From contig JABGRQ010000077.1 in NCBI GenBank assembly GCA_018648225.1, forward strand, positions 1,066 to 65,065: a DNA stretch of 64,000 nt. The letters are read 5' to 3'. The DNA comes from Chloroflexota bacterium (GTDB lineage Bacteria; Chloroflexota; Anaerolineae; Anaerolineales; UBA11858). Below are positions 16,531 through 37,709 of the stretch, in pieces. A model generated the notes under the pieces. The model worked only from the letters and a program-made list of their open reading frames with translations, did no database searches and had not been told where the DNA came from. How positions within the stretch are numbered: position 1 is the stretch's first letter; every line of letters begins with the position of its first letter. A program made the position numbers and the translations under genes.

Positions 16531-16726
16531 CGAGCTAGATTATATCGCTTTTTGGAAATTCGGCGTTTATTTTCAAAAATTCTCCCCGCAACGATCGAAA
16601 CATGCTAAAATAGCCCTAATATTGGATCGGCGGTCGTCGCAGACATTTTCTGTGGCGGCGTCGGGTTCCGACCAGCCTGGACGAAAAGTGCCGCCGGATT
16701 TATTATATTTCTGGTCGCCGATCCCT

Positions 16727-17611
16727 ATGAACCTTTGGAAAAACTATCATAACGCGCGTTCCGTGCAAGATGCGTTACAGGCTCTCAGCGCCGCACCCGG
16801 TGATGCCAGCCTGATCGCAGGAGGTACCGACCTGCTGCTCGACCTTCAGCAGGGCCGTCATGCCCCCGTCCACACGCTTGTGGATATAACCGCCATCCCC
16901 GAAATGACAGCACTCGAAATTCGAGAAGGGGAACTCTATATTGGTGCTGCCGTCCCTCACGCCCAGATTACCCAATCGAAAATTGTAAACCAACACGCCG
17001 CCGCGCTGGCTACAGCCAGTGGTCTGGTTGGCGGCCCCCAGGTGCGCAATACTGCCACTTTAGGCGGCAATGTTGCCCACGCGCTGCCCGCTGCCGATGG
17101 CACGATTGCCTTAGTCGCGCTGGATGCACAGGCTGTGATCGCCAGCTCTGCCGGGACTCGCCGCCTCCCGTTGGAAGAACTCTTCCTCGGGCCGGGACGC
17201 TCAGCCCTAGAGCCGCGCGGGGAACTCCTGGTTGGGTTTTATCTCCCCCTCAAGGGAATCCAGCAAGCCTCGGCCTTTAAGCGTATCATGCGCCCTCAGG
17301 GAGTTGCCATTGCTATCTTAAATACCGCCGTCTGGCTTCATCGAGAAGGGGACACCATCGCCGATGTACGTATCGCGATCGGGCCATCGGGACCAGTGCC
17401 GCGCCGCTTGCGTCAGGCCGAAGACGCCTTGCGCGGACAAACCTTTGGCCCAGAAGCCATCCAGGCTGGGATTGACGGGGCACAAGCTGAAGCCAATTTC
17501 CGCACCAGCCGCCACCGCTCGACGAAAGAATATCGTCAAAAAATGGCGGGCGTTTTGCTGGAAGATACATTGAATATGGCCTGGCGCGATGCCGGGAAAG
17601 CGGGTAACTGA
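16727..17611 (+). CDS. XDH-family molybdenum hydroxylase, FAD-binding (medium) subunit, set 1 (YgfM/CoxM-like)
   Basis: ATG at 16727. LIAGGTDLLLDL and ATLGGNVAHA FAD motifs, and C-terminal SRHRSTKEYRQKMAG. The track start at 16298 runs antisense into the neighbouring gene. Confidence 0.85.
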   Translation: MNLWKNYHNARSVQDALQALSAAPGDASLIAGGTDLLLDLQQGRHAPVHTLVDITAIPEMTALEIREGELYIGAAVPHAQITQSKIVNQHAAALATASGLVGGPQVRNTATLGGNVAHALPAADGTIALVALDAQAVIASSAGTRRLPLEELFLGPGRSALEPRGELLVGFYLPLKGIQQASAFKRIMRPQGVAIAILNTAVWLHREGDTIADVRIAIGPSGPVPRRLRQAEDALRGQTFGPEAIQAGIDGAQAEANFRTSRHRSTKEYRQKMAGVLLEDTLNMAWRDAGKAGN

Positions 17612-20525: not shown

Positions 20526-21011
20526 ATGACCCAATCCCCTCTCACTGAAATTTCAGTGAACTTGCCAGGCAAAATCTACCGCAGCGCGATGCCGTTTAGC
20601 AATTACGATCGGCTGGGCGAAGTTTGGCTTGCTTATCAGACCGCGAATGTCAAAGTTGTGGTTGTACTGACCGAAAAGCAAGAATATCTAGTACGCGCGC
20701 AGCGCGATTTACCTGCGTTCTACCATCAGGCTGGTATGGAAGTCATCGCGTACCCCATTCGCGACTATCACACCCCGGATGATCCTGAAGCATTTGCGGC
20801 TGTATTGCAAGCAGCCCATGCATATCTCATTGCCGGGCGCAATGTTGCCGTTCACTGTATGGCTGGCATTGGCCGCACAGGTATCTTCCTGGCGTGCCTC
20901 TCCCGGCTCGTACTGCAACTCGACGGTTCGGCTGCCATCCAATGGGTACGCGGCTACATCCCCGAAGCTTTGGAAAACGAAGAACAAGAAAACTTTGTAC
21001 TGAATTATTAG
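20526..21011 (+). CDS. Cys-based protein-tyrosine/dual-specificity phosphatase-like protein
   Basis: HCMAGIGRTG is the HCX5R(S/T) P-loop. The protein is 161 aa. Confidence 0.7.
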   Translation: MTQSPLTEISVNLPGKIYRSAMPFSNYDRLGEVWLAYQTANVKVVVVLTEKQEYLVRAQRDLPAFYHQAGMEVIAYPIRDYHTPDDPEAFAAVLQAAHAYLIAGRNVAVHCMAGIGRTGIFLACLSRLVLQLDGSAAIQWVRGYIPEALENEEQENFVLNY

Positions 21012-21054
21012 GCCACAGAGCGCACAGAGAGAAAACCTCGGTGTTGTCTGTGGC
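21012..21054. repeat. CCACAGAG-family hairpin
   Basis: GCCACAGAGCGCACAGAGAGAAAACCTCGGTGTTGTCTGTGGC begins immediately after the TAG stop. Confidence 0.7.
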
Positions 21055-21070
21055 AAACTTGGAGAACCCT

Positions 21071-22426
21071 ATGCTGATTATCAACGGAAAATTAATCACC
21101 TGGGAAAAGGAAAACCGCATTCTGGATGACGATCAAGCCATTCATATTGAAGATGGCGTAATCGTTGAAATCGGTCCGCAAAGTGAGTTGGAAGCGCGTT
21201 ACCCCGATGTGGAGCGCGAGGATGCGGGCGGCCAGTACGTGATGCCAGGCAATATTTGCGCGCACACCCATTTTTATGGCGCCTACGCCCGCGGAATGGG
21301 AATCCCCGGGCCTGCCCCCAAAGATTTTCCTGAAATTTTAGATAAGCTCTGGTGGCCGCTGGATATGGCCCTCGATGAAGATGCTGTGCGTTACTCGGCG
21401 CTGGTCATGCTCGTAGATGCCATCAAACACGGCACCACCACCCTGATCGATCATCACGCTTCGCCCAACTTCATCGACGGTTCGCTGGATGTTATTTCTG
21501 ACGCGGTCGATAAATCTGGACTGCGAGCGGTGCTGTGCTACGAAGTCACGGATCGCAACGGCGAAGAAGGGGCAAAGGCGGGGATCGAGGAAAATGTACG
21601 TTTTATCAAGAAGGTTGCTGGCAAAAAATCTCGTTTGCGCGCCACCTTCGGGATGCACGCCGCGCTGACTTTATCAGATGTCACCCTCGAGCGCAGCCGA
21701 GCAGCCATCCCCTCGGGTACAGGGTTCCACATCCATGTAGCCGAACACGAAGCCGATGAGTACGACAGTTTGCAAAAATATGGTATGCGCGTGGTGGACC
21801 GTTTGCACAAATTCGATATCCTGGGGCCAGATTCCATCGTTGGTCACGCCATCCATATTGATGCTCGTGAAGCCATATTACTCGCTGAAACCAATACCTG
21901 GGTGACGCATCAGGCGCGCTCGAATATGAACAACGGTGTTGGCGCGGCGCAAGTAGAGTCGTTGCTGCGGTTGGGTGTGCCGGTTTGTTTGGGAACGGAT
22001 GGCTTCTCATCCACGATGTGGGACGAGTGGAAAACAGCCTATCTGCTGCATAAGGTGATGACACGTGACCCGCGGCGCATGGGCGGTGGCGATATTGCCC
22101 AGATGGCGGCCTATAACAATGCCGCGCTGGCCGGACATTTCTTCAACGAAGCCCCGCTGGGTGTGCTGACCCCTGGTGCATTCGCCGATATTATTTTTGT
22201 GGACTATCATCCCCACACACCCATGAATGCTGGAAATTTGCCCTGGCAGATTATTTTTGGCTTCAACGAGAGCATGGTTACAACGACCATCGTACAGGGC
22301 AAAATGCTCATGCGTGATCGCGAATTGCTCACTCTTGACGAAGCTGCTATCGCGGCTGAAGCGCGTGCTATCGCACCGGATGTTTGGAAGCGCTATGAGA
22401 GTTATGTAGGCACATATTCCCGTTGA
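21071..22426 (+). CDS. ssnA: SsnA-like amidohydrolase (chlorohydrolase/aminohydrolase superfamily)
   Basis: GGAG RBS. MLIINGKLITWE..., the metal-binding HTHFY, HVAEHEAD, and GTDG near the C-terminal third. It lies next to the YgfM/XdhD-like pair, as ssnA does in E. coli. Confidence 0.7.
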   Translation: MLIINGKLITWEKENRILDDDQAIHIEDGVIVEIGPQSELEARYPDVEREDAGGQYVMPGNICAHTHFYGAYARGMGIPGPAPKDFPEILDKLWWPLDMALDEDAVRYSALVMLVDAIKHGTTTLIDHHASPNFIDGSLDVISDAVDKSGLRAVLCYEVTDRNGEEGAKAGIEENVRFIKKVAGKKSRLRATFGMHAALTLSDVTLERSRAAIPSGTGFHIHVAEHEADEYDSLQKYGMRVVDRLHKFDILGPDSIVGHAIHIDAREAILLAETNTWVTHQARSNMNNGVGAAQVESLLRLGVPVCLGTDGFSSTMWDEWKTAYLLHKVMTRDPRRMGGGDIAQMAAYNNAALAGHFFNEAPLGVLTPGAFADIIFVDYHPHTPMNAGNLPWQIIFGFNESMVTTTIVQGKMLMRDRELLTLDEAAIAAEARAIAPDVWKRYESYVGTYSR

Positions 22427-22512: not shown

Positions 22513-23175
22513 ATGGCACAAGAGAAACTCGTCATCGCCGTCCTCGGCGGCACCGGCAAAGAAGGCCCTGGTTTGGCAATGCGCTGGGCGCACGCTGGAT
22601 ACAAAGTTATCATTGGCTCGCGCAAGGCAGAGAAAGCTGAAGCCACAGCGATAGAGCTTAATGAAAAGCTGGGCATCGATACGATCACTGGGTTGGCAAA
22701 TGAAGATGCCGCTCGCGTGGCTGACATCAGCGTTCTGACCGTAGTCGCTACGGCGCACCAGCCCGCAGTGACCGGGTTGAAGGATGCACTCAAGGGCAAA
22801 ATCATGGTGGATGCCACGGCGCGTGTGGATTTCCGAGATCCCAAACCACCGGCAGCCCCTGCGGCAGCCATCACCGCTCAAGAAATTCTTGGCCCCGACG
22901 TGCGTGTTGTGGCCGCTTATCAAAATGTGCCCGCTCACACGCTGAAGCACAACCTCGGCGGGAAGATCGCCACCGATGTGATGATTTGCGCTGATGATGT
23001 CAGTGCTGCCGAGCAGGTGATGGCACTTACCGAAGCCGCCGGGATGCAGGCTTACTACGCCGGTAGTTTGGCGAATGCCCTGACAGTGGAAGGGTTGACG
23101 GCCATCTTGATTAGCATGAACAAATATTACAAAGTGAAGACAGCCAGTATTCAGGTTTCGGGGCTGAGTTTATAA
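22513..23175 (+). CDS. fno: NADPH-dependent F420 reductase (F420H2:NADP oxidoreductase)
   Basis: IAVLGGTGKEGPGLAMRWAHAGYKVIIGSRKAEKAE Rossmann start typical of NpdG/Fno. GGAG RBS. Confidence 0.8.
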   Translation: MAQEKLVIAVLGGTGKEGPGLAMRWAHAGYKVIIGSRKAEKAEATAIELNEKLGIDTITGLANEDAARVADISVLTVVATAHQPAVTGLKDALKGKIMVDATARVDFRDPKPPAAPAAAITAQEILGPDVRVVAAYQNVPAHTLKHNLGGKIATDVMICADDVSAAEQVMALTEAAGMQAYYAGSLANALTVEGLTAILISMNKYYKVKTASIQVSGLSL

Positions 23176-23184
23176 TTCCTTGAA

Positions 23185-23973
23185 ATGCGTCTTACCCTCA
23201 CACCCCTTCCCGGTTATCCCCTCATACAGCCTGGCGATGACCTTACCTTGATGATTCTTGACGCGTTGCATTGTGCCAATGTAGAACTTGTCAACGGTGA
23301 TGTGCTTGTGCTAGCTCAGAAGATTGTTTCTAAAGCCGAGGGCCGGATGGTGGATTTATCTACAGTAGAACCTTCACAAACTGCACAAGATTTAGCCGCA
23401 GAAACCCATAAAGACCCGCGTGTCGTTGAGTTAATTCTGCAAGAGAGCCGCGAAATCGTGCGCACGCGACCTGGTCTGATCGTAGTCGAGCATAATCTGG
23501 GCTTTATTTGCGCCAACGCCGGGATTGACCATTCGAATATAAATTCCCCTTTCCCCGCGGGAGAGGGGCCAGGGGTGAGGGTTGATGAATTTGCCTTGCT
23601 CCTCCCCAAAGACCCCTCGGCCTCTGCCGCTGCGCTGCGTCAAAAATTGCACGCGACCACCGGCGCGCAGATCGGCGTGCTGATCATCGACTCGCATGGG
23701 CGCGCCTGGCGTGCGGGTACCGTCGGCATGACGATTGGCCTGTCGGGTATCCCCGGCGTGGAAGACCTGCGCGGGCAGCCTGATCTGTTCGGGCGTACGT
23801 TGCTAGTCACGCAGGTGGGTGTGGCCGATGAATTGGCCGCCGCGGCATCCCTGATGATGGGGCAGGCCGCCGAAGGCACTCCCGTTGTGCATGTGCGCGG
23901 TTTTCCCTATCCACTGCGCGAAGGTCAGTTTAATGAGTTGCTGCGTCCTAAAAACGAAGATTTATTTCGATAA
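23185..23973 (+). CDS. cofE: Coenzyme F420-0:L-glutamate ligase
   Basis: KIVSKAEGR, GFICANAGIDHSN, VLIIDSHGRAWR and DELAAAASL motifs. Confidence 0.85.
   Translation: MRLTLTPLPGYPLIQPGDDLTLMILDALHCANVELVNGDVLVLAQKIVSKAEGRMVDLSTVEPSQTAQDLAAETHKDPRVVELILQESREIVRTRPGLIVVEHNLGFICANAGIDHSNINSPFPAGEGPGVRVDEFALLLPKDPSASAAALRQKLHATTGAQIGVLIIDSHGRAWRAGTVGMTIGLSGIPGVEDLRGQPDLFGRTLLVTQVGVADELAAAASLMMGQAAEGTPVVHVRGFPYPLREGQFNELLRPKNEDLFR
23546..23581. repeat. GC-rich palindromic element inserted in frame in cofE
   Basis: CCCCTTTCCC-CGC-GGGAGAGGGG is a stem with one T:G pair, followed by CCAGGGGTGAGGG. The 36 nt equal 12 codons (part of SPFPAGEGPGVRV). Confidence 0.7.
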
Positions 23974-23996
23974 TTCATGCAGGATGGAGAGTATCT

Positions 23997-24380
23997 GTGA
24001 AAAACATCCCCGAAGAATATCACGACCTGTTACAAGACGACCGCAAAGCCTTTGCCGTACTCGCCACCATCATGGATGACGGCACGCCGCAGGCTACACC
24101 GGTTTGGTTCAGCTACGATGGCGAGTACATCTTGCTCAACTCGGTTAAAGGACGTATCAAAGATCGCAATATGCGCGCCCGCCCGCAAATTGCTCTGACA
24201 ATCTTCGCCCCCGCCGATATGTACCGTTTCGTGCAGGTGCGCGGCCGTGTGATCGAAATGACAGAGGCAGGCGGCTGGGATCATATCCATTACCTGGCGC
24301 AGACTTATATGGGTGTGGAGCGTTGGGAGCATGGCTCCCCCGACGACGTGCGCGTCATTTACAAGGTAGCTGCCGAATAG
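23997..24380 (+). CDS. PPOX-class (pyridoxamine-5'-phosphate-oxidase-like) probable F420-dependent enzyme
   Basis: GTG start after GGAG. Split-barrel pattern AVLATIMDDGTPQATPVWF...ILLNSVKGRIKDRNMRARPQIAL. F420 gene context. Confidence 0.7.
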   Translation: MKNIPEEYHDLLQDDRKAFAVLATIMDDGTPQATPVWFSYDGEYILLNSVKGRIKDRNMRARPQIALTIFAPADMYRFVQVRGRVIEMTEAGGWDHIHYLAQTYMGVERWEHGSPDDVRVIYKVAAE

Positions 24381-24381
24381 C

Positions 24382-24984
24382 ATGAACGACGCCCACCGCT
24401 TTCTGCGCTCGCGCCGCTCGGTGCGCCGTTTCGAGCCGCAGCCCGTGCCGCGGGCAACTCTCCATCGCATTCTGGAAACGGCTACCTACGCCCCTTCGGC
24501 GCATCATCGCCAGCATTGGCGTTTTGTGGTGCTGGAAACCCCCGAAGCGAAAACTCGCTTGGCTGATGCGATGGGCGCAGAATTTGAGCGCGATCTGACC
24601 GTTGACGGGCTGAATCTCGCAGACATGCAAGCGCAGGTGGCGCGGTCTCGCAATCGAATTTTGGGCGCACCGGTTGCGATTGTCTTATGTTTTGACTCCT
24701 CCGTCGGTGATGATTATGCAGATGCAGACCGTCAGCGTGCAGAATGGCTGATGGGCGCGCAGAGCGCTGCTCTGGCTGGATTACAGCTCTTACAGGCGGC
24801 TCACGCGGAGGGCCTGGGTGGGGTGTGGACCTGTGGGCCTTTATTTGCCCCCGAAGCGGTACGCCGCGCGCTGGGGATTCCATCCCGATGGGAGCCACAA
24901 GCCCTGATGTTGATCGGCCACCCCGCACAGATTCCCGCGCCGCGGCTGCGCAAACCGGTTGAAGAAGTAACGGTGTTTTTATGA
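24382..24984 (+). CDS. Nitroreductase-family protein (stand-alone equivalent of the FbiB C-terminal domain?)
   Basis: FLRSRRSVRRF...PSAHHRQHWRF nitroreductase signature. It lies between cofE and cofD, with a 4-nt overlap with cofD. Confidence 0.7.
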   Translation: MNDAHRFLRSRRSVRRFEPQPVPRATLHRILETATYAPSAHHRQHWRFVVLETPEAKTRLADAMGAEFERDLTVDGLNLADMQAQVARSRNRILGAPVAIVLCFDSSVGDDYADADRQRAEWLMGAQSAALAGLQLLQAAHAEGLGGVWTCGPLFAPEAVRRALGIPSRWEPQALMLIGHPAQIPAPRLRKPVEEVTVFL

Positions 24985-25931
24985 AAGTTGTTGCCCTTGC
25001 TGGCGGTGTCGGTGGCGCAAAGCTGGCCGATGGATTGGCACAGGCGCTGCCCCCCGAAGATTTAACTATCATCGTCAATACCGGTGATGATTTTGAGCAT
25101 TGGGGCCTGAAAATCTGCCCCGATCTCGATACGGTTTGCTACACTTTGGCAGGTTTGGCGAATCCGGAAACCGGCTGGGGCCGCGTGGACGAAAGCTGGC
25201 AGGCTTTCGAGAATATTGCCACGCTGGGCGGCGCAGACTGGTTCAGGATTGGCGACCGCGATCTGGGCACGCATATCGAGCGCACGCGGCGATTGAACGC
25301 CGGAGAAACTCTCAGTGCAGTGACGGCCGCTTTCTGCCGCGCCTGGGGCATTGGACCGCGCGTCCTGCCAATGAGCGATGATCCCATCCCGACGATGGTT
25401 CTCACCAATGATGGCGTTTTGCCCTTTCAGGAATATTTTGTCCATCAGCGTTGCGAGCCGCGCGTCAGCGGCTTCCGCTTCGAAGGTGTTGAGCAAGCCC
25501 AACCCGCTCCCGGAGCGCTGGAAGCCATCGAGAATGCCGATGCGGTTATTTTTTGCCCGTCCAACCCGTGGGTGAGTATCAACCCTGTTTTGGCCGTCCC
25601 CACTCTGAGGTCTGCTCTCGCCGCTCCCCCAACTTTGGGAGAAGGGGACCGGGTGAAGGTCGCCGCGGTCTCTCCCATCATCGGCGGGCAGGCGCTCAAA
25701 GGCCCGGCGGCCAAAATGTACGCCGAACTGGGTATTCAGCCCTCGGCGATAGCTGTCGCACAGCACTATCAGGATTTGCTTACTGATTTTATCTTTGACA
25801 CGCTCGATCAGGAGCAAGCGGCGGCGATCGGTTCCTTAGGGATGCGTGCGTTGGTGACAGATACGGTGATGAAAACAAAAGATGATCGAAGACGTCTAGC
25901 AGAGGAAGTTCTTCAGTTTTTGACCAGGTAA
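24981..25931 (+). CDS. cofD: 2-phospho-L-lactate (or EPPG) transferase
   Basis: MKVVALAGGVGGAKLADGL, NTGDDFEHWGL, and CPSNPWVSINPVL. Confidence 0.9.
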   Translation: MKVVALAGGVGGAKLADGLAQALPPEDLTIIVNTGDDFEHWGLKICPDLDTVCYTLAGLANPETGWGRVDESWQAFENIATLGGADWFRIGDRDLGTHIERTRRLNAGETLSAVTAAFCRAWGIGPRVLPMSDDPIPTMVLTNDGVLPFQEYFVHQRCEPRVSGFRFEGVEQAQPAPGALEAIENADAVIFCPSNPWVSINPVLAVPTLRSALAAPPTLGEGDRVKVAAVSPIIGGQALKGPAAKMYAELGIQPSAIAVAQHYQDLLTDFIFDTLDQEQAAAIGSLGMRALVTDTVMKTKDDRRRLAEEVLQFLTR

Positions 25932-25983
25932 CTTTTGATACAATTGCAGCAAGGAAAGTTCAGGAAAGGACACTAAATACTCG

Positions 25984-26595
25984 ATGACACTTTGGGCAAT
26001 TGTCCCCGTAAAACCGCTCCGCCGTGGGAAATCGCGACTTTCCGCGGTCTTTTCGGAAGATGAGCGCACAGACTTGAACCGGTATTTATTAGAGAATACC
26101 GTCCGCACGTTAAAAAAAATCCCCGATATTGAACATGTTTTAGTCGTTAGTCGGGATCCGAGGGCTTTAGCAGTAGCGCGTGATTTGGGCGCTCGCACAG
26201 TTCAGGAGAATGGGCAGCCGCATCTGAATGTGGCGCTCACTCGTGCAACTGTTGTGGCAAAAACCTATGCCACGCGTGGTGTTCTGATCTTGCCTTCCGA
26301 TTTGCCGTTGGTTACTGAAGAAGATATTCAGGTGATGCTGGATCGGGCCGTTGACCCCCCTGTTGTTGTGTTGGCTCCTGATAGGCACAGGCAGGGCACG
26401 AATGCCTTGCTGGTGTGCCCGGTCGGGTTGATTGAGTATCATTATGGTGACGATTCGTTTGAAAAGCATTGTGCACTGGCGCGCGAAAAAGGCGCCCGCG
26501 TAGAAATTTGTGAACTCCCCTCGCTAACGCTGGATTTAGATCGCCCGGAAGACCTGGTTTTACTGGAAGAACGTTTGGATATCAAAATTGATTAA
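25984..26595 (+). CDS. cofC: 2-phospho-L-lactate/PEP guanylyltransferase
   Basis: LWAIVPVKPLRRGKSRL start motif. LILPSDLPL and GTNALL. Confidence 0.85.
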   Translation: MTLWAIVPVKPLRRGKSRLSAVFSEDERTDLNRYLLENTVRTLKKIPDIEHVLVVSRDPRALAVARDLGARTVQENGQPHLNVALTRATVVAKTYATRGVLILPSDLPLVTEEDIQVMLDRAVDPPVVVLAPDRHRQGTNALLVCPVGLIEYHYGDDSFEKHCALAREKGARVEICELPSLTLDLDRPEDLVLLEERLDIKID

Positions 26596-26610
26596 CTTTT
26601 TTGGAGGCTG

Positions 26611-27612
26611 ATGATGTTAGACCGTGTAGCTTTGTACTTGCAAGATTCCCATGATTTGCGTGATGGTTTGGACTACGTGAAATACGCCGAAGAGCGCGGC
26701 TTCGAGGCTGTTTGGCAGGCAGAATCGCGGCTCGTGCGTGACGCGATTGTCCCGATGGCGGCTTACGCCGCAGTGACCGAGAAGATTAAAGTTGGCTCCG
26801 GCGTACTCAACAACTGGACGCGCAATGTGGGCCTGTTAGCGGCGACTTTTCTGACGCTGGATGATTTGGCCCCCGACCGGGCAATTTTGGGCATTGGCGC
26901 CTGGTGGGATCCGTTGGCGCAAAATGTAGGTATCACGCGCCGCAAACCGCTGCTGGCGATGCGCGAAACCATTGAAGTGGTACGGCGTTTGTTGGCGATG
27001 GAACGGGTGACGTTTCATGGAGAATTCCATCACGTAGATGGTATTGAACTGGACGTGGTGCATGGTCGCCGAGAGCCGCGCAATGTGCCGATTATGATCG
27101 GCGCCACCGGCCCCAAGATGATGGAGCTGACCGGCGAAATTGCGGATGGCGCAGTGCTGAATTATTGTGTGGATCCGGAATATAATCTCAAAGCGATGGA
27201 TTTGCTTGAAAAAGGCGCCAAGAAAGCTGGCCGTTCTATTGACGATATTGACCGTCCGCAGTTGATTGTTTGCTCGGTGGATTACGATCATGATAAAGCG
27301 ATTGAAACCAGCAAAATGCTGCTCTGCCAATATATGGCGCAGCAACCGCATATTGCCAAAGCTTCCGGTGTTTCGGATGACGTAGTAGCCGAGATTCAAT
27401 CCATTTTGGGTTGGCCTGCCACGCATGAACAAATTGATAGCGCCAAGCACCTTGTTCCGGATGATTTGGTGCATCGCATCACTGCCTCGGGTACGCCCGA
27501 TGAAGCTCGCGCCAAAGTGCAGGAATATGTAGATAATGGCGCTACCTGCCCGATTCTGTACCCGGTGGGCGGGGATTTCAAACTCCTGATTGATGCGTTT
27601 GCAACCAAATGA
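26611..27612 (+). CDS. LLM-class (luciferase-like) F420-dependent oxidoreductase
   Basis: [21 protein letters not shown]...[11 protein letters not shown]...LGIGAWW TIM-barrel LLM pattern. GGAGG RBS. Confidence 0.8.
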
Positions 27613-28076
27613 CCAAACAACCCAACTCGAAGAATTGTTTTGTCTGTGGCGTAGAAAATGAACACGGCTTGAAATTGAATTTTTATGAAACGGCTCCGGG
27701 CGAAATCAGCGTTGACTATATCGTCCCGGAGCATTTTCAGGGCTATCCCGGTGTTGTGCATGGCGGTATTGTCGCATCTTTGGTAGATGAAGTCCTTGGA
27801 CGTGTTCACATGGGCAGCAAACCGGAGAACCCGCGATTTATGTATACCGTCAAACTTTCTGTGCAGTATCGCAAGAATGTGCCTACCGGCGAGCCGATTA
27901 AGATCGTTGGCTATGCCGAAGAAAGCAAACGCCGCACGGCCAAATCAACCGCTAAAATCTTCAACGCCGCAGGTGAAATATTAGCCGAGGCTGAAGCTGT
28001 TTTGGTGAATGTGCCTGCTGAAAAACTGGGTGATGTTGATCTGGAATCCCTTGGCTGGAAAATATACCCCGACTGA
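27609..28076 (+). CDS. PaaI/hotdog-fold thioesterase
   Basis: [18 protein letters not shown]-terminus and [11 protein letters not shown] hotdog core. ATGA overlap with the LLM gene. Confidence 0.7.
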
Positions 28077-28095: not shown

Positions 28096-28869
28096 ATGAT
28101 TATAGAATATCATCGTCCTGAAACAATCGAAGCCGCGCTGGCCTTGTTGGCGCGCAAAGAGCCGCGTACCGTCCCGCTGGGGGGCGGATCGGTACTCAAT
28201 CAGCCATCAGATATTCCGGTGGCCGTGGTGGATGTGCAATCCCTGGGGCTGAATCAGATCGCCGCGCGCGGCAACAAGCTCGAAATTGGGGCCGCGGCCA
28301 CCTTACAGGCGTTGTTGGATACCCCGGAAGCGCCACTCGCGCTCAAAGACGCCATCCGGCATGAGGCGGCCTATAACCTTCGTAATATGGCTACCGTGGC
28401 CGGAGCTATAGTCGCTGCCGATGGGCGCTCGCCCTTTGCCGCGGCCATGCTGGCGTTGGGCGCAGAACTGGTCTTCGCCAACGAACGTACATTGGCGCTG
28501 GGTGAATTTTTGCCCTTGCGCGCGAACGCTTCAGCCAGTGAACTCATTTCGAAGATTTCCATTCCCCTGAATATAAAGCTTTCTTATCAATACGTCGCCC
28601 GCACTCCGGCAGATTTGCCGATCGTATGTGCTGCTGCGGCGCAGTGGTCTTCAGGGCGCACCCGGTTGGTCTTGGGCGGATTTGGCAACTCCCCATTACT
28701 GGCGCTAGATGGCCCCAATGCCCTTGGCGCGCCCATCGCGGCGCGGGATGCGTACCGCGAAGCGGGTGACCAATGGGCCGGTGCGGCCTACCGCAGCGAT
28801 GTGGCTGAGACATTGGCGAGGCGTGCCATTCAGGCTTTCGGGGCTTCGGAAAAAAAAGAACAAAATTAA
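28096..28869 (+). CDS. XDH-family FAD-binding-type subunit, set 2 (short, divergent)
   Basis: YHRPETIEAALALL...PLGGGSVL, ATVAGAIVAADG, and C-terminal AAYRSDVAETLARRA. It is 257 aa. Confidence 0.75.
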   Translation: MIIEYHRPETIEAALALLARKEPRTVPLGGGSVLNQPSDIPVAVVDVQSLGLNQIAARGNKLEIGAAATLQALLDTPEAPLALKDAIRHEAAYNLRNMATVAGAIVAADGRSPFAAAMLALGAELVFANERTLALGEFLPLRANASASELISKISIPLNIKLSYQYVARTPADLPIVCAAAAQWSSGRTRLVLGGFGNSPLLALDGPNALGAPIAARDAYREAGDQWAGAAYRSDVAETLARRAIQAFGASEKKEQN

Positions 28870-28945: not shown

Positions 28946-31900
28946 ATGAAGATCAACTTACACATCAATGGCATTGACCATTTTCTAGAAATTCTCCCCG
29001 GCGACAGCCTGCTCAAGGCGCTGCGCGGGTTAGGCTATCACAGCGTCAAATTTGGCGACGAACAGGGACTGACTGGTTCGGATACAGTGCTGCTCGATGG
29101 CCGCCCGATCAATGCGGGTGTCTATCTCGCCGCGCAGGCCGAAGGCCATCAAATCGCCACGTTGGAAGCCCTCGGGGAACATCCCGATCAGGGTTGGAAG
29201 AAAACTGACGGCCTGCACCCCTTGCAGCAATCGTTTATCGAAACCGGTGCCATTCAGTGCGGATACTGCACCCCGGCGCAAATTCTGGCCGCCAAAGACC
29301 TCGTCGAGCGACAAGCCAACCCCACCGAAGCCGAAGTGCGCGATGCTCTCTCCGGGGTTTTATGCCGTTGTACCGGATACAAGAAACCCGTCCAGGCGGT
29401 GATGCGTGCCGCGGCGGTTTTGCGCGGTGAAGATGTTGAGCCGATTGACACCCCCGCGCCAATCCCCGCTCCCACGGAGTGGTTGCCTGCTCCCGAAGAT
29501 GGTGCCGCGTCTGCTCCTTTTAGGGGTGATCACGGTATTCCCCAGGTGGATACGCGCACCCGCGTGATGCCACAAATCACCATTGCCCCCCAGGAAGAAG
29601 AACTCCGCATTGTTGGTAAACCCGAACCCAAAGTGGATGCTATCAAACTGGCGCAGGGCAAACCCGCTTTCGCCGCTGATGTGGAAATGCGCGGCATGTT
29701 ATATGCCAAAGTGCTGCTCAGCCCGCACGCACATGCGCGCATCAAAGCTATTGATGCCAGCGCCGCGCGTCAACTACCGGGCGTGGCTGCCGTGCTGACG
29801 CATGCCGATATTCCGCGCGTAGTTTATTCCACCGCCGGGCAATCGCACCCCATCCCGGGGCCGCTGGATTGTTTCTCGCTGGATACCAAAGTCCGTTTCG
29901 TTGGAGACAGAGTCGCCTTTGTTGCCGCCGAAACCCCCGAGATCGCCGATCACGCCCTGAGTTTAATTCAGGTAGATTATGAAGTTCTCGAACCGTTGCT
30001 GGATACACGTCAATCCATGTTACCTGGCGCGCCCATCCTCCACGATGAACCCGATTATGTGAACTTCGCCGATTCGGACCCCTCCAAAAATTTAGCGGCT
30101 GAAATTCGCATTGATATTGGCGACCTCGAAAAAGGTTTTTCCGAGGCCGACCGAATTTTCGAAGCCGAGTACGAAGTCTCCAAAGTGCAGCAGGCGCATA
30201 TTGAACCGCATGTCGTCGTGACCTATTGGGACGAAGACGACCGTTTGGTGATTCGCACCAGTACGCAGGTGCCTTTCCATGTGCGCCGTATGTTGGCCCC
30301 GGTGCTGGGTTTGCCAGTCAAGCGCATCCGTGTGATCAAGCCGCGCGTCGGTGGCGGATTTGGCGGCAAGCAGGAAATGTTGGGCGAAGATATTGCCGGG
30401 CATCTGACCATTGTTACCGGACGGCCTGTGTTGTACGAATACACGCGTGAAGAAGAATTTATCGCTTCACGCTCGCGGCATCCGATGCGTATTTACATGA
30501 AAACCGGCGTCAAGAACGATGGCACGATTACGGCCAATGCCATGTATGCCCTCAGTGATACCGGTGCTAATGGGGCGCATGCCCTGACCGTGACCGGCAA
30601 CACCGGGCACAAGGCGATGGCGCTGTATGTGGGTGATGGTGAGTATCGCAAGGAACCCAATATCCAGTTTAATGCCGATATTGTCTACACCAACCATCCC
30701 CCCAGTGGAGCCTACCGCGGCTATGGTGTGCCGCAAGGTTTTTGGGCGGTTGAGCGTCATATGGACAAGATCGTGGACGCGCTGGGTTTTGACCCGATTG
30801 AATTTCGCTTGAAGAATGCCCTGCGCGCCGGGGAACTGCACCCCTTCAGCACCGCCTGGAGCGAGGGACGCGAACCCCGCCCGGAGACGATTGAAACCAA
30901 TGGTTTGGAAGAATGTGTACGTCAGGGTAAGGCCGCGGTTGGCTGGGATCAGAAATTTGGCAATCCCGAATGGCAGGCGGTTCCTGGTAAGCCGCATCTG
31001 CGCCGCGGTATTGGTATTGCGATGATGATGCAAGGTACGGCTATTCCGTACCTTGATATGGGTGGGGCGAGCATCAAAATGAATGATGATGGCTCGTTTA
31101 ATCTGCTCATTGGGGCCACCGATCTGGGCACCGGATCGGATACCGTGCTGGGGCAGATGGCTGCCGAAGTACTGGGCTGTACTCTGGACGATATGATTGT
31201 CTACTCATCGGATACAGATTTCACGCCCTTTGATGTAGGCGCCTACGCGTCTTCGACAACCTATATTTCGGGCGCGGCGGTGGTCAACGCGGCGCAGAAG
31301 GTGGCCGAGCGCATTAAAGTGCGTGCGGCGGGGATGTTTAATAATCTTGAAGGTTCACAGGTTGAAAGTAACCTTCAATCTGCCAACATTCAACTTGCAA
31401 ACCGTCAGGCAATCGCCCCCGATGGCAGGACGCTTAGATTATCCGAAATCGCCCTCCACACACTCCACGCCGAAGATCAAGAACAGATTATGGCGGTGGG
31501 CTCATATTACTCGCCGGTTGCGCCGCCACCCTTTGCCGCACAATTTGCTGAAGTGACTGTGGACATGGAGACTGGTCAGATCGTGGTTGACAAACTGGTT
31601 ATGGCGGTTGATTCGGGTGTTATTGTCAATCCGATTACAGCCTCCGGCCAGATTGAAGGCGGTATGGTGCAGGCACTGGGATATGCGGTTTGCGAAGAAA
31701 TGGTGTATGATGAACTCGGTCAACCGCGCGAGCGCGATTTCCGCGATTATCATATTTTTATGGCGCACGAGATGCCCGAATTGGACACCATCTTTGTTGA
31801 AACCTACGAACCGAGTCATCCCTTTGGGATTAAGGCCGTGGCTGAAATCCCACTGGATGGCGTGGCCCCCGCAGTTGGGAATGCTGTTTTCAACGCTGCC

Positions 31901-31975
31901 GCCGTGCATATAGACGCTAATCCTGTCACCCCCGAGAAAGTTTGGCAGGCGTTGCAGGATAAGAAGAAAAATTAA
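28946..31975 (+). CDS. XDH-family fused ferredoxin-like + molybdopterin-binding subunit, set 2 (first [2Fe-2S] ligands missing)
   Basis: AGGAG RBS. The second cluster is intact (CGYCTPAQ...CRCTGY). GGGFGGKQE, YRGYGVPQG and IKAVAE. The N-terminal motif reads GDEQGLTGSDTV...AG where Cys ligands are expected. Confidence 0.9.
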   Translation: MKINLHINGIDHFLEILPGDSLLKALRGLGYHSVKFGDEQGLTGSDTVLLDGRPINAGVYLAAQAEGHQIATLEALGEHPDQGWKKTDGLHPLQQSFIETGAIQCGYCTPAQILAAKDLVERQANPTEAEVRDALSGVLCRCTGYKKPVQAVMRAAAVLRGEDVEPIDTPAPIPAPTEWLPAPEDGAASAPFRGDHGIPQVDTRTRVMPQITIAPQEEELRIVGKPEPKVDAIKLAQGKPAFAADVEMRGMLYAKVLLSPHAHARIKAIDASAARQLPGVAAVLTHADIPRVVYSTAGQSHPIPGPLDCFSLDTKVRFVGDRVAFVAAETPEIADHALSLIQVDYEVLEPLLDTRQSMLPGAPILHDEPDYVNFADSDPSKNLAAEIRIDIGDLEKGFSEADRIFEAEYEVSKVQQAHIEPHVVVTYWDEDDRLVIRTSTQVPFHVRRMLAPVLGLPVKRIRVIKPRVGGGFGGKQEMLGEDIAGHLTIVTGRPVLYEYTREEEFIASRSRHPMRIYMKTGVKNDGTITANAMYALSDTGANGAHALTVTGNTGHKAMALYVGDGEYRKEPNIQFNADIVYTNHPPSGAYRGYGVPQGFWAVERHMDKIVDALGFDPIEFRLKNALRAGELHPFSTAWSEGREPRPETIETNGLEECVRQGKAAVGWDQKFGNPEWQAVPGKPHLRRGIGIAMMMQGTAIPYLDMGGASIKMNDDGSFNLLIGATDLGTGSDTVLGQMAAEVLGCTLDDMIVYSSDTDFTPFDVGAYASSTTYISGAAVVNAAQKVAERIKVRAAGMFNNLEGSQVESNLQSANIQLANRQAIAPDGRTLRLSEIALHTLHAEDQEQIMAVGSYYSPVAPPPFAAQFAEVTVDMETGQIVVDKLVMAVDSGVIVNPITASGQIEGGMVQALGYAVCEEMVYDELGQPRERDFRDYHIFMAHEMPELDTIFVETYEPSHPFGIKAVAEIPLDGVAPAVGNAVFNAAAVHIDANPVTPEKVWQALQDKKKN
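31347..31403. repeat. TTGAAGG-family element inserted in frame in the XDH set 2 gene
   Basis: TTGAAGGTTCACAGGTTGAAAGTAACCTTCAATCTGCCAACATTCAACTTGCAAACC is 57 nt, or 19 codons (LEGSQVESNLQSANIQLAN). It aligns with the intergenic copy at 22423-22497 minus its loop. Confidence 0.7.
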
Positions 31976-32249
31976 CGCAAAGCCGCAAAGGAATAAGGAC
32001 GCGAGAAGAAAATTTTAAAATATTGTATGGGTCAATAGTAGCTTGAACAGCAAAACCATCATTGTCATTCCGAGCGCAGCGAGGAATCCCTTTGAAGCAG
32101 TATGATTCATCACTTGCATAGGCACTGTTCAACATTCCGGTTAAAGATTCTTCACTCCGCTGCGCTCCGTTCAGAATGACGAGTGTTCAAGCTTTTGTTG
32201 ACAATTTTAAAAATATCTTTCCGACTTTGCAACTTTAAGCCCTTGCGTT
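31974..32249. repeat. ~275-bp nested composite palindrome (ACGCAAAG-family arms enclosing a GTCATTC-family hairpin at 32064-32180)
   Basis: Paired segments are AACGCAAAGCCGCAAAGG/...CCCTTGCGTT, ATTTTAAAAT/ATTTTAAAAAT, GTCAA/TTGAC, AGCTTGAACA/TGTTCAAGCT, and GTCATTCCGAGCGCAGCGAGGAATC/GATTCTTCACTCCGCTGCGCTCCGTTCAGAATGAC. Confidence 0.75.
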
Positions 32250-32277
32250 GATGTTTTGTGCGCCCGGAGACTACGTT

Positions 32278-33624
32278 ATGAATAATCGCACCTATGTTAT
32301 TGGGCACGTCAATCCGGATACTGATTCGATTGCTTCGGCAATGGGATATGCCTGGTTGTTACGTGAGCGCGATGAGATCGATGCTATCGCCGGGCGGGTG
32401 GGATCGATGAATCCGCAAACGCATTGGGTACTGGATCGGTTGAATTTGGAAGCGCCATTGCTGTTGCCAGATGCCTCGCCGCGCTTCAAGAACGTGGCTC
32501 GTCGCATGGATACTGCGTTGCCGGATAGCCCGTTGCGAGATGCCTGGGAAATCGCCAATCGCACCGGCGGTGTTGCGGCGATCATCAATAGCGATGGCAC
32601 GCCATATGGCCTACTAACGGGGCTCACCCTATTTTCGTTTTTTGAAGAATATGTCGGTCCGCACCCCAATCGCCAGGAAATGCGCATTTCGGATTTGCTG
32701 GATGTGCCTTGTCACCAGGCCACGGATACTGGCGTGCCGCGCTTCCCGGCTAATGCTCGCATCCGCGATGCACTGCCGCGTATTTTTCGTGAGGAACGTA
32801 ATAACTTCCTTGTAACGGATGAAAATGGTTTATATATTGGCGTTTGCCGCCAGCGCGATTTGCTCAATCCGCCGCGCCTGCGTGTGGTTTTGGTGGATCA
32901 TAACGAAGCTGAACAGGCCCTCGGTGCGCTGGATGAGGCTGATCTGGTTGAAATTATCGATCATCATCGTCTGGGGAATCCGCCCACGCGCGAACCGATC
33001 CGTTTTACGGTAGATGTGGTGGGCAGCACCAGTACACTGGTCACCGAGCGTATCGAGGAAGCTGGATTGAGCGCGCCACCTGAAATTGCGGGTGTGCTGT
33101 TGGCAGGCCTCATCTCAGATACGTTGATCTTGACATCGCCGACCACCACCGAGCGAGATCAGCGCGCCGCTGAGCGTCTGGGACGTTGGGCTTTCTCCTG
33201 GGGGAGTCCCCTCAAAGATGAGGATATGAATTCCTATGGAAAATTGGTTTTGGAATCCGGGGCGGGTCTCTCCACGCGCGATCCCGAAGAAATAGCAAGC
33301 GGCGATATGAAAACCTATGAGACCACTGGGTATAAATTCTCGGTGTCTCAGGCAGAAGTGACGGATTTAATGCAACTCAATAAACACCTGGAGTCACTTT
33401 CAAACGCGTTGGATCAATTACGTATTGCCCGCGCTTTGGATTTTTCGCTGCTCATGGTTACCGATGTGGTGCGTGGCTCCAGCCGCATTTTACTGAGTAA
33501 TCCGCCCCCCATTCTGGATGATTTGCCGTACCCGCGGCAAGATGATGGTACGCGTCATGCCAAAGGGGTAGTCTCACGCAAAAAACAATTATTACCTGCG
33601 GTTTTAGGCTTATTGGGCAGTTAG
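32278..33624 (+). CDS. CBS-domain-containing DHH/DHHA2 family inorganic pyrophosphatase-like protein
   Basis: GGAG RBS. VIGHVNPDTDSIASA, VLVDHNE and IIDHHRLG (DHH motifs), with a CBS-like insert between them. Confidence 0.75.
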   Translation: MNNRTYVIGHVNPDTDSIASAMGYAWLLRERDEIDAIAGRVGSMNPQTHWVLDRLNLEAPLLLPDASPRFKNVARRMDTALPDSPLRDAWEIANRTGGVAAIINSDGTPYGLLTGLTLFSFFEEYVGPHPNRQEMRISDLLDVPCHQATDTGVPRFPANARIRDALPRIFREERNNFLVTDENGLYIGVCRQRDLLNPPRLRVVLVDHNEAEQALGALDEADLVEIIDHHRLGNPPTREPIRFTVDVVGSTSTLVTERIEEAGLSAPPEIAGVLLAGLISDTLILTSPTTTERDQRAAERLGRWAFSWGSPLKDEDMNSYGKLVLESGAGLSTRDPEEIASGDMKTYETTGYKFSVSQAEVTDLMQLNKHLESLSNALDQLRIARALDFSLLMVTDVVRGSSRILLSNPPPILDDLPYPRQDDGTRHAKGVVSRKKQLLPAVLGLLGS

Positions 33625-33668: not shown

Positions 33669-34469
33669 ATGACGACAATTTATCAGGCTTTAGCCGAATT
33701 GGAAGCACGCGCTGAAATTGGCGCATTGTGTACAATTGTTGAGACACAAGGCTCCACGCCGCGCAACGCGGGCAGTAAAATGCTGGTCTACCCCGATGGG
33801 CGTTTTGTCGGTACGGTAGGCGGCGGCGAGCTAGAACAGCGCGTGATCGCCGAAGCACTGGCCGCGTTGGATGATGGTGTGCCGCGCAAGCTTTCGTATC
33901 AGATGAACGACCCCGCTCAGGGCGACCCCGGTTTGTGCGGCGGGCAGTTAGATATTTTTATCGATCCGATTGTCCCCAAACCAAAGCTGGTTGTAATTGG
34001 CGGGGGGCACGTTGGCAAAGCTGTGGTACATTTAGCGGCCTGGCTGGGCTTTCATGTGATTGCCAGCGATGATCGCCCGGAATTTTGCACCCCCGAAGCC
34101 GTTCCGGGCGCACATGCCTATGTGGCCTGCCCGATGGCCGAACTGGCTCAACAGGTGGCGATCAATGACTGGACGTATATCGTTCTGACCACCCGCGGCG
34201 CGGATGTTGATGCTGTTGGGCTGCCCTCGCTCTTGGAGCGAGAATCCGCCTATATCGGTGTGATTGGCTCGCGCCGCCGTTGGGCGACGACGAAAAAACT
34301 ATTATCCGGAGCTGGTGTTTCGGACGCGCAAATTGATCGCATCCACTCACCAATTGGCCTGGAACTGAACGCTGAAACCCCTGAAGAAATCGCTGTCAGC
34401 ATTTTGGCGCAATTGATTATGAAGCGCCGGGGTGGTGATGGCGCTGTGATGTCGGTGAAATCAACGTAG
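33669..34469 (+). CDS. xdhC: XdhC/CoxI-family molybdenum hydroxylase maturation factor
   Basis: LCTIVETQGSTPRNAGSKMLV...GTVGGGELE N-domain and VIGGGHVGKAV Rossmann C-domain. Confidence 0.85.
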   Translation: MTTIYQALAELEARAEIGALCTIVETQGSTPRNAGSKMLVYPDGRFVGTVGGGELEQRVIAEALAALDDGVPRKLSYQMNDPAQGDPGLCGGQLDIFIDPIVPKPKLVVIGGGHVGKAVVHLAAWLGFHVIASDDRPEFCTPEAVPGAHAYVACPMAELAQQVAINDWTYIVLTTRGADVDAVGLPSLLERESAYIGVIGSRRRWATTKKLLSGAGVSDAQIDRIHSPIGLELNAETPEEIAVSILAQLIMKRRGGDGAVMSVKST

Positions 34470-36791: not shown

Positions 36792-37709
36792 GTGGAAAAA
36801 CGAAATCCCGTTCCAATTATCAAAGTTACCTTTGCGGTAATTATGTGGGGCGCGTCATTTATTGCCACGAAAGTCGCTTTGCGCGACGTTTCGCCGGTAA
36901 CAGTTATTTGGACGCGTTTTCTACTCGGGTTTTTGGTCATTGGCGCGGTAGTGGCCTTGCGCCGGGATTTCGTTCTGCCGCCAAAGCGGGATGCTGCCTA
37001 TTTTGCGTTACTAGGCTTTATCGGGATTACTTTTCATCAATGGTTGCAGGCCACCGGACTTCAAACCGCCTCGGCATCTACCACATCTTGGATTGTCGCG
37101 ACCACCCCGATTTTTATGGCGCTATTGGGGTGGATATTCTTGCGCGAGGCTCTGGGGTGGGTGCATATTTTGGGCATTGGGCTGGCAACCCTGGGTGTGT
37201 TGCTGGTAATTACCAAAGGCGACTTTTCCATGCTGGGGTTTGAGCGCAGCGGAATGCCGGGCACCCTGTATATTCTACTGAGCGCCCCCAATTGGGCTGT
37301 GTTCTCGTTGCTTTCGCGGCGCGGCCTGGAGCGTTATCCGGCGGCGCGCATGATGCTGTATGTGATGGGCTTTGGCTGGCTGTTCAGTTCGGTGATGCTT
37401 TTCTCCGGGCCGGGACTCACCGAAATTGCATCGCTCACCATTGATGGCTGGATGGGCATCCTGTTCCTGGGTGTGTTCTGCTCCGGGGTGGCCTACATTT
37501 TTTGGTATGACGGTCTTCAATCCGCTTCGATGTCACAGGTCGGCGCGTTAATCTATTTGGAACCGCTGGTCACAGTGATTGTCGCCGCGCTGATGATAGA
37601 TGAACGGATTTTGCCGGTGGCGATGCTGGGTGGCCTGGCAATTTTGATCGGCGTCTATCTGGTGGATCATGCGGCCAAACACGCGTTGCCGCAAGGAGAA
37701 CACATCTGA
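36792..37709 (+). CDS. DMT-superfamily (EamA) transporter
   Basis: GTG after GAGGT. Ten hydrophobic segments. Duplicated EamA pattern (WGASFIATK...; AVFSLLSRR...). Confidence 0.85.
   Translation: MEKRNPVPIIKVTFAVIMWGASFIATKVALRDVSPVTVIWTRFLLGFLVIGAVVALRRDFVLPPKRDAAYFALLGFIGITFHQWLQATGLQTASASTTSWIVATTPIFMALLGWIFLREALGWVHILGIGLATLGVLLVITKGDFSMLGFERSGMPGTLYILLSAPNWAVFSLLSRRGLERYPAARMMLYVMGFGWLFSSVMLFSGPGLTEIASLTIDGWMGILFLGVFCSGVAYIFWYDGLQSASMSQVGALIYLEPLVTVIVAALMIDERILPVAMLGGLAILIGVYLVDHAAKHALPQGEHI

Follow-up and report, generated by a model that had tools for sequence, protein, structure and literature searches.

How can a xanthine-oxidase-family enzyme work when one of the two clusters that should carry its electrons has no ligands left? 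The question is raised by a gene at positions 28946-31975 of a 64,000-nucleotide stretch (the window) of contig JABGRQ010000077.1, from a bacterium of the Chloroflexota. In the textbook xanthine-oxidase family, two [2Fe-2S] clusters wire the molybdenum cofactor (Moco) to flavin adenine dinucleotide (FAD) or to the protein surface. In canonical xanthine oxidoreductase (XOR) and carbon monoxide dehydrogenase (CODH) the order is Mo, Fe/S I (the proximal cluster), Fe/S II and FAD, neighbouring centres lying about 15, 12 and 8 Å apart. A first-pass annotation distinguished three xanthine dehydrogenase (XDH) sets in the window and proposed that the protein of Set 2 encoded by this gene had lost the cysteines of the N-terminal cluster; it described that cluster as the neighbour of FAD in characterised enzymes, in agreement with general knowledge of XOR and CODH structures. 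On our analysis the gene product appears to be a xanthine-oxidase-family enzyme with the proximal cluster only, belonging to a family in which the wire seems to have been lost repeatedly and stepwise. The parts of this gene and of its partner gene are as follows.

28946..31975, + strand: XdhD-type fused subunit, 1009 aa, with an apparently cluster-free ferredoxin-like domain, Fe/S I domain, hammerhead and Moco-binding domains
28946..29179, + strand: N-terminal beta-grasp (plant-ferredoxin-like) domain, residues 1-78, apparently without cluster (structure model, identity and substitution rates)
29054..29119, + strand: Fe/S II ligand loop in degenerate form, G37-G58 (aligned gap-free with four small subunits of known structure)
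29057-29059 (D38), 29072-29074 (T43), 29081-29083 (D46) and 29117-29119 (G58), + strand: former Cys codons (same alignment)
29255..29380, + strand: Fe/S I (proximal [2Fe-2S]) motifs QCGYCTPAQ ... LCRCTGY, ligands C105, C108, C140 and C142 (sequence, Pfam)
30845..30898, + strand: XdhD-type insertion FSTAWSEGREPRPETIET, with a Glu aligned with Glu606 of Escherichia coli XdhD (alignment)
31835..31852, + strand: AVAEIP motif; its Glu is the catalytic one conserved in the xanthine-oxidase family (aligned with Sets 1 and 3 and with XdhA and XdhD of E. coli)
28096..28869, + strand: YgfM-type short FAD-binding-fold subunit, 257 aa, one Cys (Pfam, NCBIfam and PDB matches)

The ligand loop of the XdhD-like protein

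The translation of the open reading frame (ORF) contains ...SVKFGDEQGLTGSDTVLLDGRPINAGVYL..., and the N-terminus of the protein reads ...YHSVKFGDEQGLTGSDTVLLDGRPINAGVYLAAQ.... When phmmer aligns the protein with four small subunits or domains of known structure (4zoh_C, 3hrd_D, 1dgj_A and 5y6q_A), no gaps arise, and D38, T43, D46 and G58 fall on the four Cys ligands, which bears out the replacement by D, T, D and G that had been proposed. The aligned reference loops are EGCSEGECGACTVIFNGDPVTTC in 3hrd_D, a nicotinate dehydrogenase subunit, VGCGKGQCGACTVILDGKVVRAC in 1dgj_A, the aldehyde oxidoreductase (AOR) of Desulfovibrio desulfuricans, and KGCDQGQCGACTVLVNGQRVLSC in 5y6q_A; 4zoh_C was aligned as well. 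The Pfam search detected no Fer2 domain (PF00111) in the protein, and there is no Cys anywhere in residues 1-104. Eight Cys are present in total, of which four are the Fe/S I ligands; the others (C309, C657, C745 and C916) are scattered in the Mo domain and so offer no substitute ligand set. Alternative ligands in a known geometry were not found in the alignment with small subunits, and a misalignment masking Cys or His ligands was ruled out by the gap-free alignments to four structures together with the Cys-free residues 1-104. Sets 1 and 3 keep the canonical C-x4-C-x2-C...C arrangement (GCEEAECGACTV...SC and GCAEGECGACTV...SC), as first described. The XdhD-like protein lacks the four Fe/S II cysteines that mark a canonical XDH or xanthine oxidase, and the alignments show that, as far as can be read from sequence, its Fe/S II has no possible ligand set.

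The second cluster motif and the Mo-site motifs had been called intact, and they are. Pfam detects Fer2_2 (93.3 bits), Ald_Xan_dh_C (hammerhead), MoCoBD_1 (255 bits) and MoCoBD_2 (230 bits), and the GGGFGGK motif is present. The Pfam order and the AlphaFold2 (AF2) model with its Foldseek matches confirm a single chain, in which Fe-S-type N-terminal domains are fused to Moco domains. Two further marks of a canonical XDH, the Fe/S I cysteines and Moco domains with the catalytic Glu, are both found, and these motifs show an intact Fe/S I and Mo site.

A compensating cluster elsewhere was sought in the orthologues described below and in the flavoprotein partner. No Cys column is conserved specifically in the Cys-less XdhD-like proteins of the orthologue alignment; the YgfM-like partners contain 0-6 Cys with no conserved Cys motif, and the partner in the window, having one Cys, has no cluster of its own. 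The absence of a Cys-less-specific column and the Cys-poor partner rule out such compensation.

Recurrence of the loss and upkeep of the domain

The database search that followed showed the variant to be clade-wide and recurrent in the family. We compared 83 orthologues from Anaerolineae/Chloroflexota, made up of 80 loci from species representatives, two more obtained by protein look-up, and the window itself. No Cys is found at any of the four Fe/S II columns in 72 of them, and the other 11 keep all four (CCCC); all four Fe/S I Cys are kept in 82/83. Among the 72 the ligand states are DSDG (45), DTDG (12), DSDY (5), ATDD (4) and others. The 120 nearest database homologues (73-94% identity, from metagenome-assembled genomes (MAGs) of Anaerolineales/Chloroflexota) fall into two sharply separate N-terminal types, KFG[DAS]E.G.[ST]G[ASV]DTV...NA[G..] and KHGCETGECGACTV...NSC. 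The same synteny surrounds Cys-bearing and Cys-less genes, and they are therefore regarded as orthologous.

The conservation of the replaced positions raises the possibility that the Asp, Ser/Thr and Asp residues bind a mononuclear metal or an Fe-S cluster with non-cysteinyl ligands, which would relay electrons or steady the loop. In the 72 Cys-less orthologues, D46 is invariant (72/72), as is the adjacent E39, and D38 (64/72) and S/T43 (72/72) are nearly or fully so; Asp also recurs independently at positions 1 and 3 in E. coli (DADS) and in two more distant database relatives, P0123 (DGDG) and P0139 (DADN). Against this, position 4 is Gly (G58 in 61/72), position 2 is Ala or Gly in the other lineages, and position 1 is Ala or Ser in some orthologues, so that at most two conserved carboxylates are available, too few for known [2Fe-2S] ligation; the N-domain has no Cys and no newly conserved His. 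A redox-inert structural cation is possible but would not restore the wire. We consider an alternative metal centre very improbable.

Elsewhere in the family the loss is found again. A search of 1.84 billion cluster representatives showed that most fused relatives are CCCC/CCCC at Fe/S II and Fe/S I; the Cys-less ones include P0123 (DGDG/CCCC, 48% identity) and P0139 (DADN/SNID). The latter is of the E. coli type and of gut Oscillospiraceae type, and it is abundant: at 90% its cluster counts 1913 members, YgfN of Vescimonas fastidiosa among them. E. coli XdhD itself has NSDDGFGFAGSDAIIFNGNIVNAS at Fe/S II and QSGYNDP...SRDAGW at Fe/S I, all eight Cys being gone; in the E. coli K-12 gene (L001:21317-24187, NC_000913.3) there is no Cys before about residue 190. 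Its RefSeq name is nevertheless 'molybdopterin-binding subunit and Fe-S binding subunit', despite the lack of any ligand Cys.

In a bootstrapped neighbour-joining (NJ) tree of the Mo domain only, in which the backbone within the Anaerolineae clade has no resolution, the Cys-bearing P0121 groups with the Anaerolineae clade (99%), while P0123 and E. coli/P0139 fall outside. To judge from the tree, the Cys-less state is thus spread over three separate lineages or more, each of which has Asp at ligand positions 1 and 3. The placement of P0121 rules out a single loss; the number of events inside the Anaerolineae clade lies beyond the tree's resolution, and recombination of the N-domain is possible there. 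One Cys-less locus, L029:4310-7270 (JABGQT010000036.1, Anaerolineae MAG co234_bin62), encodes a full-length protein of 986 aa in which three Fe/S I Cys out of four are replaced as well (IQSGYCTP ... ILDRETGY), while its sister L030 keeps them; L029 is an independent second step toward the no-cluster state of E. coli.

The orphaned domain is maintained. Mean pairwise identity of the N-domain is 0.70 among Cys-less and 0.62 among Cys-bearing orthologues, G41 and G44 join D46 and E39 as invariant in the Cys-less domains, and the ratio of nonsynonymous to synonymous substitution rates (NG86 dN/dS) is about 0.12 for the N-domain and about 0.05 for the Mo domain, values that are approximate since dS is near saturation. 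The identity comparison and dN/dS rule out relaxed selection on the domain and show, within the reach of such estimates, that it is under purifying selection. In the AF2 model it has beta-grasp secondary structure with pLDDT 83-94 over residues 1-70, so that a confident fold is predicted, and the top Foldseek matches are the AOR of Desulfovibrio gigas and D. desulfuricans (TM-score 0.72/0.79), followed by the alpha subunit of 4-hydroxybenzoyl-CoA reductase (4-HBCR).

That the gene encodes a decaying pseudo-enzyme, or is an artefact of assembly, has only the missing ligands themselves in its favour. The 1009-aa frame is intact, Mo-site and Fe/S I motifs are conserved, dN/dS is low across domains, and the identical state in 72 independent genomes, with conserved synteny, rules out sequencing error or frameshift and far exceeds what chance would give. 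This explanation is hardly credible, and we infer an enzyme that is probably functional rather than decaying.

Family identity and the reductive urate neighbourhood

The generic XDH label of the first-pass annotation did not hold. The best NCBIfam model for the fused protein is TIGR03313 (XdhD/YgfN-type Mo/Fe-S subunit) and that for the protein of 28096-28869 is TIGR03312 (YgfM-type FAD subunit), both matched below their cut-offs. With the E. coli K-12 xdhD and ygfM sequences retrieved as a comparison, the Mo domain has 41% identity to E. coli XdhD, and to Set 1 of the same window 34%. Set 2, all its orthologues and E. coli XdhD have in common an insertion some 11 residues long (AWSEGREPRP in Set 2, AIGEGKAPTS in E. 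coli), which in the alignment is missing from Sets 1 and 3 and from XdhA of E. coli; it also occurs in Cys-bearing proteins, both fused (P0121, P0132) and unfused. Glu606 of E. coli XdhD, which lies in it, has been suggested to orient urate (Li et al. 2025, PMC12507026). Scores against NF045668 (MOP-type AOR; 434 bits, cut-off 1100) and TIGR03194 (4-HBCR; 536 bits, cut-off 994) place the protein in neither family. The NCBIfam hits, the Mo-domain identity, the Glu606 insertion and the SsnA/F420 context together indicate that Set 2 is an XdhD/YgfM-type pair of a Chloroflexota form, and not a canonical XDH, a MOP-type AOR or a 4-HBCR.

The adjacent gene was described as a short and divergent FAD-type gene, and so it proved. 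Its product matches Pfam FAD_binding_5 (85.5 bits), CO_deh_flav_C reaching only 18 bits, under the 25.5 cut-off. Matches to solved FAD subunits (CoxM, 4zoh_B) are weak (E 1e-5 to 1e-6) but colinear, with the GGGS, TVAGA and D motifs kept, and the gene ends 77 bp upstream of the XdhD-like gene. Orthologues begin MIIEYHRP, and the partners of Cys-less and Cys-bearing proteins are equally conserved, including the GGG(T/S), RN.ATVAG, DGRS and EWASAEYR motifs; decay of the partner restricted to Cys-less lineages was not seen in their alignment.

The family's role was assigned in 2025 as the first step of anaerobic urate degradation in the gut and the environment. The E. coli protein co-purifies with YgfM, and the preparation reduces urate to 2,8-dioxopurine using NADH, taking away the oxygen at C6; ssnA clusters of Chloroflexota carry an F420-type luciferase-family enzyme in place of YgfK/UacX (PMC12507026). 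The genes around Set 2 are the following.

20894..22426, + strand: SsnA aminohydrolase, ring-opening step of the reductive urate pathway (NF005540, 518.8 bits, cut-off 444; TIGR03314, 500.7 bits, cut-off 455.5)
22513-23175: Fno-like F420:NADP oxidoreductase
23185-23973: CofE
23997-24380: PNPOx-like gene
24382-24984: nitroreductase-fold gene
24981-25931: CofD
25984-26595: CofC
26611..27612, + strand: F420-type luciferase-like (LLM) oxidoreductase (Pfam Bac_luciferase, 228 bits; NCBIfam F420 LLM families)
27609..28076, + strand: 4HBT-fold thioesterase-like gene, conserved between the LLM and YgfM-like genes (Pfam 4HBT)
32248..33624, + strand: DHH-CBS-DHHA2 protein (Pfam; synteny)
33669..34469, + strand: XdhC-family Moco maturation/insertion factor (Pfam XdhC_CoxI, XdhC_C)

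This content fits the Chloroflexota type of reductive urate cluster described in PMC12507026, as judged by gene families and order. The F420 module (22513-27612) sits between ssnA and the XdhD-type genes. Its LLM gene is syntenic in many related loci that retain F420 genes, and the LLM oxidoreductase is a candidate for the enzyme that reduces 2,8-dioxopurine in the pathway's Chloroflexota variant. The SsnA family match begins at residue 60 of its ORF, and the XdhC-family protein stays under the cut-offs of NF045664 (224.3 bits, cut-off 350) and TIGR02964 (126.4 bits, cut-off 161.6). The window itself has no YgfK-like gene. In L003 (5168-7660), and also in L009, L010, L014, L034 and L074, cofC and the LLM gene have between them a gene for an 830-aa YgfK-like Fe-S flavoprotein (Fer4_20, Pyr_redox_2), and the stated absence of YgfK from Chloroflexota is therefore not general.

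Several further observations were made at these loci. The DHH-CBS-DHHA2 gene, whose product has the fold of a CBS-regulated family II pyrophosphatase or of a phosphoesterase, lies downstream of the XdhD-like gene, often directly, in most orthologous loci, Cys-bearing or Cys-less. A DUF6909 protein (770 bits, 37709-39421) is encoded between the FAD/Fe-S fusion and Mo-subunit genes of Set 3 in several loci (L002, L003, L084), which suggests an uncharacterised accessory role for the Set 3 XDH. The ORF of the Set 1 FAD subunit (16298-17611, 437 aa) overlaps a minus-strand ORF (15775-16530) and shows family matches only from about residue 148; its true start is probably much later than the ORF start. 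Further away, 42770-45886 encodes a 1038-aa fusion of serine hydroxymethyltransferase with glycine-cleavage T-protein (GCV_T), also present in L003, and glycine-cleavage P-protein genes lie at 53179-55981 on the - strand. The window begins with a gene for a 1639-aa signalling protein (43-4962; GGDEF, receiver, PAS, three GAF and HD-GYP-type HD_5 domains), followed by genes for a substrate-binding protein and an 898-aa histidine kinase.

The electron path and known systems

The earlier suggestion of an electron path altered from the canonical FAD-Fe/S II-Fe/S I-Mo chain seems reasonable on these sequences. We favour, at somewhat better than even confidence, the reading that Set 2 is a Chloroflexota XdhD-YgfM urate reductase whose N-domain is a docking scaffold and whose Fe/S I is the sole relay; as part of this explanation, and with the same slight preponderance, the predicted reaction is urate to 2,8-dioxopurine. 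The N-terminal domain would be a folded scaffold that docks the YgfM-like flavoprotein and has no other role, and its two conserved Asp may make up for the net charge of -2 that went with the [Fe2S2(Cys)4] centre. Fe/S I would be the only relay to Mo; electrons would tunnel to it from the YgfM flavin in a single long and slow step, or come from a different donor that docks close by, with NAD(P)H, F420H2 or ferredoxin as candidate reductants; a remodelled interface, slow turnover or a different donor are alternative ways in which the gap might be met. Activity of E. coli XdhD is reported with YgfM and without any clusters, so the family can work without Fe/S II.

Some points weigh against this reading. 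The distance from FAD to Fe/S I is about 20 Å in canonical structures, beyond the usual 14 Å limit, and a direct hop would be slow; the Moser-Dutton ruler gives at ~20 Å roughly 1-100 per second at best, slow yet possible. FAD binding by the YgfM-like protein is itself deduced from motifs. The family scores lie under their cut-offs (TIGR03313, 698.2 against 1101.9 bits; TIGR03312, 94.9 against 241.5 bits), and strict equivalence with E. coli XdhD/YgfM is therefore not established. In loci with at least 8 kb of upstream flank, a YgfM-like gene lies within 10 kb in 34/51 Cys-less and 9/9 Cys-bearing loci (an automated count gave 8/9, p=0.26, L074's adjacent partner making it 9/9), a trend that is not significant and is phylogenetically confounded. 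The 17/51 Cys-less loci with no neighbouring gene hint that the flavoprotein could be dispensable. Upstream of such loci are an M16 peptidase, mobile-element-like inserts or purine genes; in L036, L037, L051 and L078 a conserved ORF of ~224 aa (MSEFFQRNLPHYHLPNA.YFITFRLAGSLP...) lies ~700 bp upstream of the XdhD-like gene. It resembles a REP-associated/IS200-type tyrosine transposase and is inserted in several loci without a neighbouring YgfM-like gene.

The partnerless loci are also the main support for a separate donor, in which the YgfM-like protein is structural, regulatory or being lost and Fe/S I is reduced by some unlinked partner, for instance a ferredoxin, a flavodoxin-like protein, the YgfK-like Fe-S flavoprotein or an F420H2-dependent enzyme. 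In L084, purH and IMPDH stand directly upstream instead, the YgfK-like gene is present in some orthologous loci, and Clostridium sporogenes XdhAC is active with neither an FAD subunit nor use of NAD(P)H. Where the partner is present, however, it is as well conserved in Cys-less as in Cys-bearing lineages, FAD-fold motifs included; the window has its gene immediately upstream, YgfM co-purifies with E. coli XdhD in a preparation that uses NADH (PMC12507026), and the difference in partner presence carries the limits given above. We regard a separate donor as unlikely, although it deserves some weight. For the same reasons the first-pass annotation's suggestion that the FAD-like subunit had become purely structural is unsupported.

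The E. coli enzyme, free of clusters, exposes the real problem, since transfer from FAD to Mo over more than 25 Å should be negligible. Through-protein transfer may be dispensable altogether, two small-molecule substrates cycling the Mo site directly, in a ping-pong or transhydroxylase-like manner, while the clusters are lost stepwise. The recurrence of Fe/S II loss in at least three lineages, the loss of both clusters in E. coli XdhD and in P0139 with its 1913 cluster members, and the full-length L029 protein would all be consistent with it. Retention of Fe/S I in nearly all orthologues argues for its continued use; methyl viologen drives the C. sporogenes enzyme, whose selectivity among xanthine isomers is for urate/2,8-dioxopurine, xanthine is left unconsumed by E. 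coli xdhA mutants (PMC12507026), and no candidate second substrate is known. A wider form of the idea, that XdhD-type dehydroxylases are shedding the whole wire, with Mo reacting with two small molecules or with a pterin-adjacent partner cofactor and YgfM repurposed, we hold to be improbable, and direct cycling by two substrates a shade more so. The XdhD-YgfM reading with Fe/S I as sole relay is retained as the preferred one.

In open-access literature and bioRxiv we found no mention of missing ligands in XdhD-type proteins, subscription journals being outside the search. The text of Li et al. (PMC12507026) contains neither '2Fe-2S' nor 'cysteine' and does not mention missing ligands; the text of the Dodd-lab preprint contains neither '2Fe-2S' nor 'Fe-S', and all it says on iron-sulfur is that XdhAC possesses domains binding such clusters. 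In the XdhD family there are natural variants, maintained by selection, in which the distal cluster or both clusters are missing and an FAD-fold partner is kept. Anaerobic urate degradation is relevant to hyperuricaemia and gout, and for annotation and the engineering of urate-degrading probiotics, the cofactor demand (Fe-S or none) and the choice of donor affect heterologous activity.

Among known systems, E. coli XdhD-YgfM, the nearest in function, is similar in its Fe-S-like N-terminus fused to the Mo domain, in the YgfM-type subunit gene of ~257-259 aa immediately upstream, and in the Glu606-type insertion, Mo-domain identity, ssnA association and Asp at Fe/S II positions 1 and 3. It differs in that its Fe/S I Cys are also lost (SNSD), whereas the window protein keeps them, and in that its cluster has ygfK, in place of which the window has the F420-type LLM enzyme and F420 biosynthesis genes. 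C. sporogenes XdhAC, the 2,8-dioxopurine dehydrogenase (DOPDH), interconverts urate and 2,8-dioxopurine (bioRxiv 10.1101/2025.04.24.650524). Compared by description and not by sequence, it shares the family reaction, a fused Fe-S and Moco protein and an anaerobic purine cluster with ssnA, and is unlike Set 2 in having no FAD subunit, no use of NAD(P)H and methyl viologen-driven activity. Urate/2,8-dioxopurine activity has been shown for E. coli XdhD-YgfM (PMC12507026) and C. sporogenes XdhAC (10.1101/2025.04.24.650524) only.

The Cys-bearing Anaerolineae orthologues (such as P0052/L002, L019 and L072) have 71-75% identity overall, the same short YgfM-like partner and the same gene order (LLM, 4HBT, YgfM-like, XdhD-like, DHH/CBS, XdhC, Set 3). 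They differ in keeping the four Fe/S II Cys (KHGCETGECGAC...C) and in co-varying residues, H36/E42/S57 against F36/L42/A57 in the Cys-less proteins. At ~75% identity and in the same operon context, the two kinds of orthologue form a natural experiment with its own controls, which bears on how far the wire is needed, on the real electron donor and on how a cluster-free ferredoxin fold is stabilised.

The AOR of D. gigas and D. desulfuricans (MOP; PDB 1sij, 1dgj) is the best structural match and likewise a single fused chain; unlike the window protein it has both [2Fe-2S] clusters, no FAD subunit and a different substrate, at 26% identity. Of the sequences in the PDB, the alpha subunit of 4-HBCR from Thauera aromatica (PDB 1rm6) matches the Mo domain best (E=8e-107), and 4-HBCR, likewise of the xanthine-oxidase family, works in the reductive direction as a dehydroxylase. 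Besides both [2Fe-2S] clusters it carries an additional [4Fe-4S] cluster, bound by the FAD subunit; there a cluster was gained, whereas the window enzyme appears to have lost one and its FAD-fold partner has a single Cys.

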